Under the pieces are notes generated by a model. It did no database searches. It saw only the letters and a program-made list of their open reading frames with translations, and was not told the DNA's origin. A program made the position numbers and the translations under genes. Shown piece by piece: positions 1 through 5,046 of a stretch of 5,046 nt of DNA (position 1 is its first letter; each line of letters opens with the position of its first letter). This DNA is from a virus (lineage: Duplodnaviria > Heunggongvirae > Uroviricota > Caudoviricetes), in the IMG/VR virus record IMGVR_UViG_2563366924_000001, positions 1-5,046 of that record; one strand, 5' to 3'.

Positions 1-312
1 GATAAGTTGCTGTGTCCGTTGCTTCAACATCGCATTCTCCGCCGCCAGCGCCGAAAACTTCTCGTGTGCCAACTTAACAGCTGCATCAGCCTGCTTAATT
101 GACTCAGTCGCTTTCTGGTGGTCTTCGGCCAGCCCTGCTAAATCAGCCTCCAGTTCGGCTAGGCGTTCATTTAATGCATCTCGTTCATCCAGTAGAGCCA
201 GCACAACCTGAGGTGTGACTTTCATACGAAATGCCAGCAATTTTTGAGGTGTTGCTACTGTTTCAATTGCTACTGCTGCCTCACGCAGTACCTGATAGTC
301 AATCTTGCTCAC
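1..312 (-). CDS. Partial CDS (N-terminal 104 codons, continues beyond the left edge); coiled-coil, possibly ead/Ea22-like
   Basis: Hand translation of the reverse complement of 1..312 gives an open frame with no stop: (V/M)[103 protein letters not shown]... The GTG start overlaps the upstream stop (GTGA). The DYQ.LREAA and VLALLDE segments recall Ea22-like prophage proteins (memory only). Confidence 0.5.
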   Translation of the reverse strand, partial: MSKIDYQVLREAAVAIETVATPQKLLAFRMKVTPQVVLALLDERDALNERLAELEADLAGLAEDHQKATESIKQADAAVKLAHEKFSALAAENAMLKQRTQQLI

Positions 313-983
313 TGGTTGCCTCCTTTGCGAATCTGTTCCGCCCATTCTTCAAGGGATTTCTCCGCATATTCACCAGATAGGCCATCAATCGGATGCGCTT
401 CATTAGCCAACTCTTCTTTCGCTGACAAAATCATGCGTGTAACGTCGAAAACTTCACGCAAAGACTTATTGATAAATCCGTGATTGAACGCAGCAGCAAG
501 ACGGCTGGCGGTATAGTTAATCCCCTCGTTGCGTGCTTCCGCACGTACTTCAGCCAGGAAAGCGTCGGTAGCTGGGGTTTGGACTTTTTCGTATTGGTAT
601 TCCGTATCGCCAAGGTCGTTAATTATGTTTCTCACCAGGTTGGACTCCACAGCCTTCAGCCCCGCATTCTCAGCAGCCAGCGTATTGCGTTCATGAGCAA
701 GTTTTTCTGTTTCTTCTTGCGCCAGTTTGTTGACCTGTTCAGCTACTTCCATGAGTTCGTTAATCACATTTATCTTTGCAGCCAGCGCCGAGCACTTGGC
801 TTCAAGGTTGTCAATCGTGATTCCTGCAGAACGACACTCCCGCAACGCCGTTTCTAGTTTTGATTCAAGTTCACCGAACTTACGGACAAGATATTCAGCG
901 TTTGTTTCGTTAACTTTTAAATCTCGCGGGATGCATTTACCTTTCAGAAATCCATCCATCTCAATTAGTGTCATTTGTTTCAT
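309..983 (-). CDS. Hypothetical coiled-coil protein, about 224 aa (phage b-region / Ea-type accessory protein)
   Basis: Long ORF with heptad-like A/E/L/K-rich composition in the central 150 residues. Start placed at the ATG at 983 (ATGA coupling with the upstream ORF); the track's start at 1001 is a GTG. Stop TGA 311..309 overlaps the GTG start of the next ORF (GTGA). Confidence 0.65.
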
Positions 984-1144
984 TTCTTCCCACTCCGCCA
1001 CATCGCATTCAGATATTTGTTGTCATTAACAGAACCGAAACTCTTTCTCTTAAGCAATTCCTCTCTCGATGGCATTGGCTTTACGCGTTGGCGAATAATC
1101 ATTTCTGCCGGAAGAATGCCGGGATTGTATGCAAGTCCTCTCAT
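980..1144 (-). CDS. Hypothetical small protein, 54 aa
   Basis: Found by hand (below track cut-off). ATG at 1144 preceded by SD AAGAGGA with a 7-nt spacer. Stop TGA (982..980) overlaps the ATG at 983 of the next gene (ATGA). Translation: [54 protein letters not shown]. Confidence 0.5.
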
Positions 1145-1160
1145 GGTAAATTCCTCTTTG

Positions 1161-1475
1161 TTAATTTATTCGTATGCCTGCTCTTTCTTCATCGAGTTTT
1201 TTTAGCTTGTATCGCATAGCTCTTACTGAATAAATTGAGCGGCAGGTTGCAATTGCTATTTCTTCTGCGGAGAACTTACCGAAAAGTGATACTTCGGCTC
1301 TTGTCCATCGTCTTCCACGAAGTCGGCTAACAATGTCAGCTCCAATCCTTGTTGCTTTCGCCATTACTGCTTTTTCAGTCCTTTCCAGTTTTTCAGCGAT
1401 AACTTCAACTGGCATTGTCGCCGCTACTTCGCGCAAGAAATCGACTTCCCATTTCTCCCATGGAGTCTTTTTCAT
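1161..1475 (-). CDS. Hypothetical 104-aa protein with two helix-turn-helix-like segments; possible DNA-binding protein
   Basis: ATG at 1475, 11 nt after the upstream stop, with a weak SD. Two internally similar segments, each a Trp followed by an acidic helix and an I-A-x-x-L/C-x-R-x-x-x-V-x-x-R type HTH-like pattern ([15 protein letters not shown] and [19 protein letters not shown]). Confidence 0.6.
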
Positions 1476-1486
1476 AGGCGATACCG

Positions 1487-1969
1487 TTATTTGATAAGAA
1501 GTGAAGGTTTCCCAACTTTGAGTTGAGCGCCGGGGATATTTATTCCTGCTTTTAGTTGGTGTTTGATTGCCAGTTTGTCGGCTTTAATTGTCGTTTCAAA
1601 CTCAACGTATTCAGGAGGAAGGGCGCTTGAGTCGATTATTTCTACAATTTCTGACGGTTTGCGGATTGTTACCTGGTGAATACCTGCTCGAATATTTTTC
1701 TTGCCAACCATTTCAAGCGATGACGCTATATATGATTTGATGCTGTCAATCTTATTTTGGATTACTGCGGCTCGCTCATTCAGTGACTTTGCCTCTTCCT
1801 TGAGGCGTTCAGCATAACCAGATTCATTTTTAATGACGGAAAGAAGTTGCTCTATTTTATCGGTAAATTCTCCTTCCATGCCTTCTATTGTGTCAGCAAT
1901 CATCTCTGGCTCTAAATCTGAATCCATCAGCTTTGCGTATTCATTGGCTATTTCATACAGTTTGCTCAC
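1487..1969 (-). CDS. Gp157-like / Gam-like recombination-associated protein, about 160 aa
   Basis: ORF immediately downstream of recT, overlapping it by 17 nt. Start re-placed to the GTG at 1969, which has SD GGAGG and a 6-nt spacer; the track's TTG at 1975 sits directly against the SD. Size, coiled-coil N-terminal half and position next to RecT fit Siphovirus Gp157-type proteins (Pfam PF05565); the family call is from memory only. Confidence 0.7.
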   Translation of the reverse strand: MSKLYEIANEYAKLMDSDLEPEMIADTIEGMEGEFTDKIEQLLSVIKNESGYAERLKEEAKSLNERAAVIQNKIDSIKSYIASSLEMVGKKNIRAGIHQVTIRKPSEIVEIIDSSALPPEYVEFETTIKADKLAIKHQLKAGINIPGAQLKVGKPSLLIK

Positions 1970-2864
1970 TGGCAACCTCCAGTTTCGCTTTGCATTCTGT
2001 GTAAATGGCTTGTACGTTCTGCTGCAATTTCATTCCAGATGTCAGGCGATATGCTTCTGCAAAATATCGCTTCAAATCATCCATGTTTTCTGCCTGAGCC
2101 ATTTCATCACAAAGAAGTTGTGCTTTTTCCGTTATTTCCTGCTGGCGTTTCCTTTCATCTTCGCGGATATCTTCCTCTGATTTGTGCGGCATAACTGGTT
2201 CAGTCCACACACCTTCTTCTTCGTTTAGTACGTGAATAGCACTATCAAGACGTGATGCCTTAGGCCAATACTTGCTTGCACGCTTTACGACCGTCTTTCG
2301 CGCCATCTCATTCCAGTGATTTACCCATGGTCCTTTATCGCTGAATGCCGCCTTGCTTGTTTTCCTTACAGCCTCAATTTCAGCCAGACTCATCTCTTCC
2401 GTTAGATAATCACCTGCTGGCGTCTTAACTGTGCAGTAAACACCAACTATATCGCCACGATCACCGAAGGCGTTGTATTTATGGGTTGGTGCTTTATCAA
2501 GTCCGTTTGACTCATAAGTATCGTTAGCATGAACAAGCTTTGCCTGACCCCATGAGATAACACCAGACTCCATTGCAATATGGAGCAATCCCATATAGCT
2601 GATATCAAGGCAAACCATGCCGTCGCGAGGAACCAGATAAGCCAGTTTGCTGGCCGGGTTTAAGGTGATGCCGATCGCCGCAACATTGATGATAGCGTTC
2701 TGTGCGCTGGTTGGATTTGCCAGTGCTGTTTTAGCCAGGTAATCGTTTTTCTGGAAATACTGAATTGCAAACTGGCTTTCCTTAGCCCATGTCACCGTCT
2801 GTTCAGTCAATGCTCCGCAGAATAACTGCTCCTGCTGTTTAACGAATTCAACGATATTGCTCAT
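1953..2864 (-). CDS. recT: RecT-family single-strand annealing protein (recombinase), 303 aa
   Basis: Contains the RecT-type motif KGPWVNHWNEMARKTVVKRASKYWP (compare Rac RecT NGPWVTHWEEMAKKTAIRRLFKYLP, from memory). SD GGAGA 6 nt before the ATG. Acidic C-terminal extension. Sits in the recombination module of the pL operon. Confidence 0.85.
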   Translation of the reverse strand: MSNIVEFVKQQEQLFCGALTEQTVTWAKESQFAIQYFQKNDYLAKTALANPTSAQNAIINVAAIGITLNPASKLAYLVPRDGMVCLDISYMGLLHIAMESGVISWGQAKLVHANDTYESNGLDKAPTHKYNAFGDRGDIVGVYCTVKTPAGDYLTEEMSLAEIEAVRKTSKAAFSDKGPWVNHWNEMARKTVVKRASKYWPKASRLDSAIHVLNEEEGVWTEPVMPHKSEEDIREDERKRQQEITEKAQLLCDEMAQAENMDDLKRYFAEAYRLTSGMKLQQNVQAIYTECKAKLEVASEQTV

Positions 2865-3172
2865 GCTGCTTCTCCAAAAATGTGTCTGCGTTTAAATATT
2901 GCGAAGGCATATTCAGCCTTAACTCTTTCGGTTATTGCATCCCAGAACCATTCAGCGGCTTTTTCCTGATAGTTACAGTCATCATCTTCCAGCCAGTCGA
3001 TAGCGTCCTTAGTGTGTTCATCTGGTTTATATGAGCGAAGCATTTCGCTTATTGGGTCGCAACGTTTGCAGAGGCGATCAACTTCACTGTTGATTCGTTC
3101 GTAATCTTCATCAGTAAAACTTGCGATAATTTGCGATATTTCACGCTTATCATTCAGAGTCAGAATCATCAT
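2861..3172 (-). CDS. Hypothetical 103-aa acidic protein, translationally coupled to recT; possible host-nuclease inhibitor by position (inference)
   Basis: ATGATG start with SD AGGAGA. Its TGA stop overlaps the recT ATG (ATGA). Occupies the position held by gam (lambda) or abc (P22) directly upstream of the annealing-protein gene. No family recognised. Confidence 0.7.
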   Translation of the reverse strand: MMILTLNDKREISQIIASFTDEDYERINSEVDRLCKRCDPISEMLRSYKPDEHTKDAIDWLEDDDCNYQEKAAEWFWDAITERVKAEYAFAIFKRRHIFGEAA

Positions 3173-3257
3173 CTTTCTCCTGTTCTTTGTGCTGATTGAG
3201 CATTTTGTTCATCTGACGAATGAATTCTTCGTCTGACCATGTATCCGCAATACTCAT
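3144..3257 (-). CDS. Hypothetical small acidic protein, 37 aa
   Basis: Found by hand. ATG at 3257 overlaps the stop of the upstream 54-aa ORF (ATGA). Translation: MSIADTWSDEEFIRQMNKMLNQHKEQEKDDDSDSE. Overlaps the start of the next gene by 29 nt in another frame. Short and low-complexity, so uncertain. Confidence 0.35.
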
Positions 3258-3418
3258 TGCTTAACGACCTTAATCAGTTGAGTTACCTCAATGATGTCCT
3301 CGCATAAATCCGAGTACTGAAATGGGCCGCAGTTGTGAGAGTTAGTGCGTCTGGCGAAAGCCATTCTTCTAAGCTCTTTCAGGGCTTCTTCCAGTTCCTC
3401 GTAAGTTGGTTTTTTCAT
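3254..3418 (-). CDS. Hypothetical small protein, 54 aa (occupies the position of kil in lambda)
   Basis: Below the ORF-track length cut-off and found by hand. ATG at 3418 overlaps the cIII-like stop as ATGA, and its own stop overlaps the next ATG as ATGA. Translation: MKKPTYEELEEALKELRRMAFARRTNSHNCGPFQYSDLCEDIIEVTQLIKVVKQ. Confidence 0.5.
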   Translation of the reverse strand: MKKPTYEELEEALKELRRMAFARRTNSHNCGPFQYSDLCEDIIEVTQLIKVVKQ

Positions 3419-3585
3419 GGCTGTACCTTTTGATTCAGAAACTCAACAAGACGATCCAGCAAGCTCTTAACGCGAGGTTGTTTAAAGTCTGCTCCGGTTA
3501 AAATATTTTTTCGTGAATGCTGTACCGATAAAATCGGGTTGAAAGGGCGAACCGATGCCGCCCCTGCAATAGCGAACTGTTGCAT
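3415..3585 (-). CDS. cIII: cIII-like small regulatory protein (FtsH/HflB protease inhibitor family), 56 aa
   Basis: ATG at 3585 preceded by SD AGGAG with a 6-nt spacer. N-terminus MQQFAIAG resembles lambda cIII MQYAIAG, and ...SLLDRLVEFLNQ resembles the cIII central helix (recalled, not searched). Position after tL and before the recombination genes matches lambda. The 91-aa track ORF is this gene with a spurious TTG-initiated extension that runs through the terminator. Confidence 0.55.
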   Translation of the reverse strand: MQQFAIAGAASVRPFNPILSVQHSRKNILTGADFKQPRVKSLLDRLVEFLNQKVQP

Positions 3586-3650
3586 AGGATGCTCCTTCTG
3601 TTTGATTGCATAACGAAAACGCCTCGAGTGAAGCGTTATTGGTATGCATA

Positions 3651-3675
3651 TAAAAAAGCCCTCACATCGGAGGGC
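3651..3675 (-). terminator. Rho-independent terminator on the minus strand (tL-like), between the accessory cassette and the cIII-like gene
   Basis: Minus-strand RNA: GCCCUC-CGAUGU-GAGGGC followed by UUUUUUA. That is a 6-bp GC-rich stem (plus 3658-3663 / 3670-3675), a 6-nt loop and a 6-U tail (complement of plus 3652-3657). Confidence 0.6.
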
Positions 3676-3737
3676 AAAGAAGATTTCCAATAATCAGAAC
3701 AAGTCGGCTCCTGTTTAGTTACGAGCGACATTGCTCC

Positions 3738-3765
3738 GTGTATTCACTCGTTGGAATGAATACAC
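3738..3765 (-). other. Perfect 9-bp inverted repeat (GTGTATTCA / TGAATACAC) with 10-nt spacer; candidate RNA hairpin or protein-binding site
   Basis: Read directly: plus 3738-3746 GTGTATTCA, spacer ctcgttggaa, 3757-3765 TGAATACAC. Sits 15 nt downstream of the 156-aa gene stop. No U-tract follows on either strand. Confidence 0.4.
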
Positions 3766-3779
3766 AGTGCTTATTCGTA

Positions 3780-4250
3780 CTAATAAAATACCCAATTTTC
3801 TGTTTCTTGGTTGTGTCCAAAGTTATATTCAATATCTGGTGTTGATGTATCAATATTCTTCATCCCATCAACAAGAGTTGATACAACAGCCAAATCTTGT
3901 TTGATTCTCATTAAATGGTACTTCTTCCGGCGCAATAAACTTTCAATGGCAAGTTTCTTCGTTGGGAATGCAAAAGATCTTTCTGCATTTTTTGCTACTT
4001 TCTTAATTGCATATCTATTTCTCCTTTGTTTCCATTCCTGTAACCACTGATTTGGTGCTGGTTTAAAATTAACAATCCAATGCGCAGGAACCAACCATGC
4101 ATAATGCTCTGTCTGATGAAAAGCTATATATTGAAGTGCGAATATTTTTATCCCATCTTCTTCAACTGTCGCCTGGAATCTCCAGAAAACAGGCATTCCA
4201 TCATGTTCAGTTTCTGATTCAGGAAAAGGTACGCTCCATGATTTTGTCAT
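3780..4250 (-). CDS. Hypothetical 156-aa protein, Trp-rich N-terminal half and strongly basic central segment; function unknown (accessory/moron gene)
   Basis: Longest ORF in this segment, co-oriented with the operon. SD GAGGTGAGAT before the ATG at 4250. Seven Trp residues, and a K/R-rich stretch (WKQRRNRYAIKKVAKNAERSFAFPTKKLAIESLLRRKKYHLMRIKQ). Hand counts on sampled 60-nt lines give about 28-40% GC here versus 45-48% in flanking phage genes. I recognise no family. Confidence 0.7.
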   Translation of the reverse strand: MTKSWSVPFPESETEHDGMPVFWRFQATVEEDGIKIFALQYIAFHQTEHYAWLVPAHWIVNFKPAPNQWLQEWKQRRNRYAIKKVAKNAERSFAFPTKKLAIESLLRRKKYHLMRIKQDLAVVSTLVDGMKNIDTSTPDIEYNFGHNQETENWVFY

Positions 4251-4330
4251 ATCTCACCTCAAATAATTCAGTGCAGTGTTTATTCTGTTGTTTATGCCAA
4301 AAGAAGGCCGACTATGCGGCATAATTATTT

Positions 4331-4519
4331 TTAACTATCATCAATACATGGCACTTTATTCCAGTCGATATCGTTTTTATTGTCGTCCCACATGTCTTTG
4401 TTTTTGTATTTCTCGCTACATCCTAGGCAAATGTTGTATGGCCTACCGATAAGGTTTAACGAAATACGTTGCATTTCATTTGATTCAAACATGTATCCAC
4501 AGAACTGACATTTATGCAT
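4331..4519 (-). CDS. Small zinc-ribbon protein, 62 aa, acidic C-terminal tail; function unknown (accessory/moron gene)
   Basis: ORF with CxxC (C4,C7) and CxxC (C31,C34) separated by 23 residues. SD GAGG about 8 nt upstream of the ATG. Lies in a low-GC segment immediately downstream of N. Confidence 0.6.
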   Translation of the reverse strand: MHKCQFCGYMFESNEMQRISLNLIGRPYNICLGCSEKYKNKDMWDDNKNDIDWNKVPCIDDS

Positions 4520-4578
4520 ATCTCACCCCTCATACAGTAGCTTACTGCCTAATTTCATTTTCTGGCGACCAACACAAG

Positions 4579-4962
4579 TCACCTCGCCGTCAGTTGTTTT
4601 GATTTCCGGTAGCCTGCCGCGTAAATGGCTACGTTTGGAAGACATACACCAGTTTCTGGTTGCTTATGTCCAAACTCATTCGCGTACACAATGGCCGCTC
4701 GCTCCAGATTGCGTCTGTATTCTTTCTGTTGCCAGATCACGTCCTGTGCCATGAACTTAATTGGCTTAGCGTCTTCTATGCGCTCAGGCGTTTCGTGAGT
4801 ACCTTTAGCCTGAATCTGCGCTCTGCTTAGAGTAGGGCGGTGTAATACTTCTGAACTTATTGCTTCTTCGCGGGCCAGTACGCCGTTAGCTAATGCCTTT
4901 GCCTTTAAACGCTCACGACGACGAGAACGTGAATTGCCTTTGAACTGAGTTCTGCGTGTCAT
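4579..4962 (-). CDS. N: N-type transcription antitermination protein (P22 gene 24 / lambda N family), 127 aa
   Basis: N-terminal arginine-rich motif (SRSRRRERLKAKALA) of the kind that binds boxB RNA in N proteins. C-terminus ...LPNVAIYAAGYRKSKQLTAR closely resembles my recollection of the P22 gp24 C-terminus. Strong SD (AGGAGG, 5-nt spacer) before the ATG at 4962. It is the first gene of a leftward operon, followed by a terminator and a cIII-like gene. Confidence 0.8.
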   Translation of the reverse strand: MTRRTQFKGNSRSRRRERLKAKALANGVLAREEAISSEVLHRPTLSRAQIQAKGTHETPERIEDAKPIKFMAQDVIWQQKEYRRNLERAAIVYANEFGHKQPETGVCLPNVAIYAAGYRKSKQLTAR

Positions 4963-4995
4963 ATAGACCTCCTGATGAACTTTGGTGGTGTGGTG

Positions 4996-5015
4996 GCTGG
5001 TAGTCTAGCTCCAGC
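4996..5015 (-). promoter_or_regulatory. Candidate hairpin in the N leader (possible nutL-related structure)
   Basis: GCTGG / CCAGC 5-bp stem with a 10-nt loop, 30-50 nt upstream of the N start. The loop is longer than a canonical boxB and no boxA-like CGCTCTT(T)A was found in the 84 nt available, so this is weak. Confidence 0.2.
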
Positions 5016-5046
5016 TTGTTGAGTCTCATTCGGAGGGGTATAACCG

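Follow-up and report, generated by a model that had tools for sequence, protein, structure and literature searches.

The tL2 cluster was reportedly described by Luk and Szybalski in 1983. In the open literature on tL1 and tL2, nothing was found beyond the preprint of Silverman et al. (bioRxiv 10.1101/2024.10.31.621285), where a GC-rich hairpin with poly-U between ral and ea10 is equated with tL2a, one of the sites where transcription of the early-left operon of lambda terminates. The same site is the 3' end of LPR1, renamed PreS, an Hfq-dependent small RNA (sRNA) of lambda (10.1101/2024.10.31.621285). LPR1 is about 88 nt long and is processed to about 68 nt; it is Hfq-enriched and present in the lytic cycle only (10.1101/2024.10.31.621285). 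PreS opens the ribosome-binding site of dnaN and in this way activates its translation; PreS also represses alaS, and deletion of its seed lowers lambda DNA replication and spontaneous phage release (10.1101/2024.10.31.621285). The PreS sequence was reported in 2,537 genomes (10.1101/2024.10.31.621285), and the findings are restated in a review (PMC12197685). The GenBank record of phage HK97 has a putative terminator annotated after gene 45 (AF069529, 25377..25400).

The window, that is, the whole stretch of 5,046 nt analysed here (IMG/VR virus record IMGVR_UViG_2563366924_000001, positions 1 to 5,046), carries a hairpin of this kind between the accessory genes that follow N and a cIII-like gene. 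Such a hairpin is already known as tL2a of lambda, as the 3' end of PreS (described in 2024), and as the annotated putative terminator of HK97. In our reading, to which we assign a probability of about 0.85, the hairpin and its run of six U's are a copy of tL2a and also the 3' Hfq-binding end of an 86-nt PreS/LPR1 homologue.

Genes of the Window

The sizeable genes of the window are all on the minus strand and represent the early-left (pL) operon of a lambdoid phage. The N antitermination protein is of the HK97/933W type and is coded at 4579..4962 (PF25694, 2.1e-15; phrog_271, 3e-39). It is identical to HK97 N at 125 of 127 positions (98%). The N start codon is 84 nt away from the right end of the window, beyond which pL and nutL are located; in the 933W record, nutL is annotated 166-232 nt upstream of N.

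Two accessory ORFs follow on the minus strand and are referred to below as the cassette (3780..4520). The first, at 4331..4519, codes for 62 aa with CxxC...CxxC motifs; compared with HK97, it is inserted between N and gp45. The second, at 3780..4250, codes for 156 aa and is a homologue of HK97 gp45 (155 of 156 aa identical, 99%) and of 933W L0079. Neither protein had a match in Pfam, NCBIfam, or PADLOC, and in PHROGs they belong only to families without assigned function (phrog_19863 and phrog_1636, respectively). The G+C content of the cassette is 0.355-0.38, against 0.45-0.50 in N and on the cIII side, and this AT-richness fits horizontally shuffled cargo. A ribosome-site/start motif GAGG(G)GUGAGAUAUG is nearly identical before the 62-aa ORF (4517..4531) and before gp45 (4248..4262), and the shared motif is likely a recombination joint.

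A non-coding gap of 194 nt, inside which the hairpin is located, separates the 156-aa ORF (4250..3780) and the cIII-like gene (3585..3415, minus strand). The latter codes for 56 aa (phrog_550, E = 5.9e-19), has a Shine-Dalgarno sequence and an ATG, and is the first gene 3' of the terminators. Several small ORFs are between it and recT (2864..1953, minus strand). A gene for a Gp157-family protein is at 1975..1487 on the same strand.

Terminator Hairpin and Its Neighbours

The preliminary description had placed on the operon strand at 3651-3675 a hairpin with a GC-rich 6-bp stem, a 6-nt loop, and a U6 tail, and had called it a tL-like terminator. The pattern scan for terminator-like sites lists exactly this hairpin at 3675..3658 on the minus strand, as GCCCUC-CGAUGU-GAGGGC (GCCCTCCGATGTGAGGGC then TTTTTTATAT). 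The stem has six pairs, five of them G-C, and the loop has 6 nt. The U6 tract (3657..3652, minus strand) abuts the stem with no spacer; it is the predicted termination point and, to judge from its composition, a poly-U tail typical of Hfq-binding sRNAs. When folded alone, the hairpin has an energy of -11.1 kcal/mol (z = -3.3).

Seven terminator-like sites were counted in the window and 5.6 +/- 2.2 in shuffled sequences, so that the total is not above chance. Sites as stringent as this one, with a perfect 6-bp stem, at least 5 G-C pairs, a loop of 3-8 nt, and six or more T's in a row beginning no more than 2 nt away, are rare: when the whole window was shuffled 2000 times with its dinucleotide composition preserved and both strands were scanned, only one of the shuffles contained such a site. 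On the plus strand, AAAGAAGAUUU follows the hairpin; because this is no U-tail, termination is expected in the leftward (operon) direction only. A G+C-rich stem of at least 5 bp with a short loop and a U-tract directly 3' of it on the transcribed strand are the features of an intrinsic terminator. By these features, the hairpin is predicted to be a canonical one, located between the accessory genes and cIII.

In lambda (J02459) and 933W, the same hairpin with the same flanks is directly upstream of the ea10/ssb start codon. On this similarity, the hairpin and U6 of the window can be taken as the phage's copy of lambda tL2a. The name tL-like was thus well chosen, as the hairpin is a homologue of tL2a and the same hairpin is annotated in the HK97 record.

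A second hairpin, AACGCUUCACUCGAGGCGUU then UUCGUUAUGC, is present further along the minus strand (hairpin 3637..3618, whole element 3637..3608). It is followed by four U's, counting the last two U's of the stem, and then by CGUU. It is a homologue of the hairpin just upstream of cIII in lambda and 933W. The lambda hairpin at this place is one that we take to be tL2b, and the positions found by the scan in lambda, 33,932-33,953 and 33,494-33,513, agree with the coordinates that we presume for tL2a and tL2b. The tL2a-like and tL2b-like terminators of the window are only 14 nt apart, because the phage has no ea10.

A 7-bp hairpin, GGUGACUUGUGUUGGUCGCC, overlaps the N stop codon (4564..4583, minus strand) and is present in HK97, too. 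It is not an intrinsic terminator, because it has no U-tail. A weak terminator after the 62-aa ORF (4255-4335) was also considered and rejected, as no stable stem with a U-tail behind it is present there.

PreS Homologue

Table S5 of the preprint lists cloning and T7 primers, from which the sequence of LPR1 was reconstructed; LPR1 maps to lambda J02459 34011..33924. When aligned to it, the window has an 86-nt homologue of LPR1/PreS at 3736..3651 on the minus strand, and the terminator hairpin is the 3' end of this homologue. In the pL operon, N and an accessory gene precede the homologue, and cIII follows it. Identical residues are at 84 of 86 aligned positions, with one gap of 2 nt, which is within the limits used in the preprint (at least 92% identity and at most 3 gaps). 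All of the 68 nt located 5' of the loop are identical to lambda LPR1; the differences are two substitutions in the loop and a missing GA spacer.

The seed, UGUUCUGAUUAUUGGAA, is at 3701..3685 on the minus strand; its limits were taken from the primers for deletion of the lpr1 seed, as the part that their homology arms enclose. Lambda has the identical seed, including the triplets mutated in M1 (dnaN) and M2 (alaS). Within 3675..3701 (minus strand), two blocks are perfectly complementary to the dnaN leader of E. coli K-12, as found by an exact-complement search against the dnaA-dnaN junction of NC_000913. The 11-nt block 3701..3691 pairs with dnaN positions -27..-17 and the 12-nt block 3686..3675 with -47..-36, both relative to the AUG. 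The exact-complement search was used instead of RNAduplex because the latter ignores intramolecular structure; with full-length PreS and the dnaN leader, 6 of 500 shuffles were equally good in RNAduplex.

By sequence, the U-rich stretch AAAUCUUCUUU, the hairpin, and U6 form a predicted Hfq-binding module. A U-rich stretch, a terminator hairpin, and a 3' poly-U are the features by which such modules are recognised in the general sRNA literature. No match was found when the whole window was scanned against Rfam 15 (E <= 1), and PreS has no family in Rfam 15. The Pas sRNAs and HnrS, which are other prophage sRNAs, were checked and are unrelated.

Directly upstream on the minus strand is a 14-bp hairpin (3767..3736), with an energy of -18.8 kcal/mol and z = -6.8. 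Its last paired G is the +1 nucleotide of PreS. It is probably a processing element or a 3'-protection element for the upstream mRNA.

Conservation in Related Phages

A scan of IMG/VR was anchored on the seed region, not on the hairpin, and yielded 120 loci; together with lambda, 933W, and the window, 122 usable sequences were compared. The GCCCUC/GAGGGC stem is kept in about 115 of the 122, with 14 variants of the loop, and nearly all of the sequences retain five or more U's in a row. A lack of conservation, which would have spoken against the claimed terminator, was thus not found. In 79 distinct sequences, pair counts showed the terminator stem to be essentially invariant, with few U-G changes and few breaks, and because of this invariance, covariation gives no support either way. 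The 131-nt module is present in 2234 of 5426 complete E. coli genomes and in 327 phage records, with 95-99% identity, and at such identities the conservation could come partly from recent common ancestry.

The surroundings of the module are variable. Its 5' edge is a conserved joint, CGAAUAAGCACUG (3777..3765, minus strand), upstream of which at least eight unrelated contexts were found, with different cargo in different phages. Downstream of the U-tract, 53 of the 122 relatives have a tL2b-like hairpin and cIII directly, 44 have ea10, and 25 have another gene. The tandem layout without ea10 is therefore the commonest one among the sampled relatives (53/122). As a side observation, the PreS module of about 125 nt is a conserved island with a hypervariable slot on either side, for which at least eight contexts were found upstream and at least three downstream.

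Exchange was observed within the module as well. The 14-bp hairpin is conserved; at its position, six IMG/VR loci have a hairpin of other sequence. Both-side changes in this hairpin were found in the 79 distinct sequences, all of them from one swapped lineage. That hairpins of different sequence occur in the same place in six loci suggests that the structure at 3736..3767 matters. In two other loci, the 5' part of PreS and the first pairing block, UGUUCUGAUUA, are kept, and divergence starts within the second, U-rich block. The terminator is there swapped for another hairpin (UGCCGCUC...GGGCGGCA) that is followed by UUCUUUU.

These data bear on another explanation, according to which the hairpin is a terminator only, attenuating pL before cIII, and the RNA upstream of it is a degradation intermediate without a trans-acting role. 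Such a role of the hairpin agrees with its complete terminator anatomy and with the HK97 record, whose annotators recorded a terminator only, and the sRNA function is established for lambda only. However, the identity with lambda extends over the 68 nt upstream of the loop, comprising the 17-nt seed and both dnaN-pairing blocks, and the 5' stretch of PreS is invariant among relatives in which both flanks are swapped, which is hard to explain if it is a mere spacer. A terminator without an sRNA is, in our view, improbable.

A seed-pattern scan of genome contigs gave 21 matches. Many of them are on short or low-coverage contigs or on contigs of about 48 kb in non-enteric genomes. Exact seed matches were seen in assemblies of Shewanella, Pseudomonas, Bradyrhizobium, Kitasatospora, and others. 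The non-enteric matches are probably lambda DNA contamination of public assemblies, and for this reason the contig scan is uninformative on host range and taxonomy.

Accessory Genes and N Dependence

From the N stop codon (4579) to 3675, the pattern scan found no further canonical hairpin-plus-U site on the minus strand, and the hairpin is therefore the first intrinsic terminator after N in the window. N itself is encoded upstream in the same operon, as is expected for N-dependent antitermination. It is reasonable to infer that the cIII, RecT, and Gp157 genes would depend on antitermination, as the preliminary description had proposed, and this is strengthened by the second hairpin in tandem and by the lack of another terminator after the N stop. 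Rho would find little untranslated RNA to load on in the intergenic gaps, which are 59 and 80 nt long; Rho-dependent stops may still occur upstream despite these short gaps.

The same description had regarded the cassette as the only non-regulatory cargo expressed independently of N, and this part cannot be maintained. The PreS/LPR1 RNA that ends at the terminator would itself be functional, host-directed cargo. The terminator is a part of the conserved PreS module and not of the cassette; lambda, which lacks the cassette, has it after ral. Moreover, pL is repressed in an uninduced lysogen. Since pL is silent there and LPR1 is absent in lysogeny, N-independent expression would be limited to at most a brief early phase after induction. 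A comparison of uninduced with induced lysogens is uninformative on N dependence for the same reason, pL being repressed and LPR1 lytic-only. Which genes escape N control should not be deduced from the hairpin alone.

It is very improbable that the hairpin is a private moron terminator and the AT-rich cassette an autonomous unit with its own promoter and hairpin. The G+C content of the cassette, lower than in its neighbours, and the position of the terminator directly after it would agree with such a unit, but a consensus scan found no sigma-70-like site on the minus strand near 4520-4600 or 4250-4330. In addition, lambda, which has no cassette, carries the hairpin together with the preceding 100 nt after ral, and in other relatives they are found behind at least eight upstream contexts; the hairpin therefore belongs to the conserved module.

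The least credible explanation is that the conservation reflects a small protein coded by an unannotated 31-codon ORF (3731..3636, minus strand; MSLVTKQEPTCSDYWKSSLPSDVRAFLYAYQ), which runs through the seed and the hairpin and whose frame is also open in lambda, but which has GGAG only 2 nt before its AUG (a poor ribosome-site spacing), varies in the loop by changes that always alter the amino acid (AGU, AAU, GAU, GGU, UAU) while the stem arms are fixed, is shifted in frame by loop variants of +2 nt, has a C-terminus that differs with the downstream context, and has no coding annotation in its region in NC_001416; it is probably not translated. This small ORF was also compared with lambda orf28 and is not that gene, which is at 34271..34357 in NC_001416.

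Proposed Function

If the hairpin is tL2a and the 3' end of PreS, the following course of events can be proposed. After induction or infection, leftward transcripts would cross N, the 62-aa ORF, and the gp45-like ORF. Polymerase without N would terminate at the U-tract (3652), and the tL2b-like hairpin, 14 nt beyond, would serve as a back-up for polymerases that escape. N-modified polymerase would read through into cIII, recT, and the rest of the operon. The small RNA would arise by termination at the hairpin and by cleavage at the foot of the upstream 14-bp hairpin, and it would bind Hfq via the U-rich stretch, the hairpin, and the poly-U tail. By its seed (3701..3685), the small RNA would pair with the dnaN leader and raise translation of the sliding clamp, and by pairing with alaS it would lower that of alaS; this would support replication of the phage. 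The identity of tL2a, the binding to Hfq, the species of about 88 and 68 nt, the expression in the lytic cycle only, and the regulation of dnaN and alaS were shown for lambda, and we extend them to the phage of the window on the basis of the anatomy and the homology, together with the unchanged seed, the complementarity to dnaN, and the conservation. A point against this course of events is that N overrides the terminator, and yet the sRNA is abundant in lytic growth, a matter left unexplained in the preprint (10.1101/2024.10.31.621285).

The segment 3777..3652, with the joint, the 14-bp hairpin, PreS, and the terminator, might also be a portable 3'-end unit that closes a variable accessory slot after N. 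This proposal is based on the hairpin swapped in six loci, the terminator swapped in two, and the upstream and downstream contexts, at least eight and at least three in number; we hold it as possible, though rather doubtful. If it were true, PreS would be freed by a cleavage marked by the upstream hairpin, which would also protect the cargo mRNA against 3' exonucleases, and the terminator would make PreS before N accumulates. In phages without ea10, such as that of the window, the adjacent tL2b-like hairpin could then give a second, longer isoform of PreS or couple the formation of PreS to the structure of the cIII leader.

For annotation of lambdoid prophages, the gap between the post-N accessory genes and cIII or ea10 is best recorded as PreS with tL2a, followed by tL2b. 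Annotating it as a plain terminator or as empty intergenic DNA is not advisable.

Comparison with Known Systems

The hairpin of the window and lambda tL2a have in common the stem GCCCUC/GAGGGC, a loop of 6 nt, and the U6 run, and they are located in the same operon, on the same strand, and at the same place, with the N-proximal accessory gene before them and ea10 or cIII after them. They differ in two bases of the loop, which is CGAUGU in the window and CAGUGU in lambda. The window has no GA between the stem and the U-tract, so the stem is 6 bp long compared with 8 bp in lambda, and the fold energy is -11.1 compared with -12.9 kcal/mol. As ea10 is absent from the window, the tL2b-like hairpin follows after 14 nt, whereas in lambda it follows after about 430 nt.

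HK97 has the same order of N, gp45, hairpin, tL2b-like hairpin, and cIII, and the flanks of the hairpin and the U-tract are identical. The loop of HK97 is CAGUGU, as in lambda, and the main difference is the 62-aa ORF between N and gp45, which is extra in the window. Also, the window has a RecT/Gp157 recombination module, whereas HK97 has Erf.

With PreS of lambda, the homologue shares the 5' 68 nt including the seed, the predicted 5' stem-loop, the U-rich stretch, the hairpin, and the poly-U. It is 86 nt long instead of 88 nt, the gene upstream is gp45-like instead of ral, and the gene downstream is cIII instead of ea10.

A further parallel is found in the 3'-derived, terminator-ended Hfq sRNAs that are by-products of antitermination control in phages, such as StxS from the pR' terminator of Stx phages (PMC7547250). 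PreS is an early-left, N-controlled RNA, whereas StxS is late and Q-controlled, and the two have no sequence similarity. PreS is present in the lytic cycle only, whereas pR' is described as always active and is terminated just downstream in lysogeny, giving a short by-product RNA. In both systems, a terminator controlled by antitermination doubles as the 3' end of a trans-acting Hfq sRNA.
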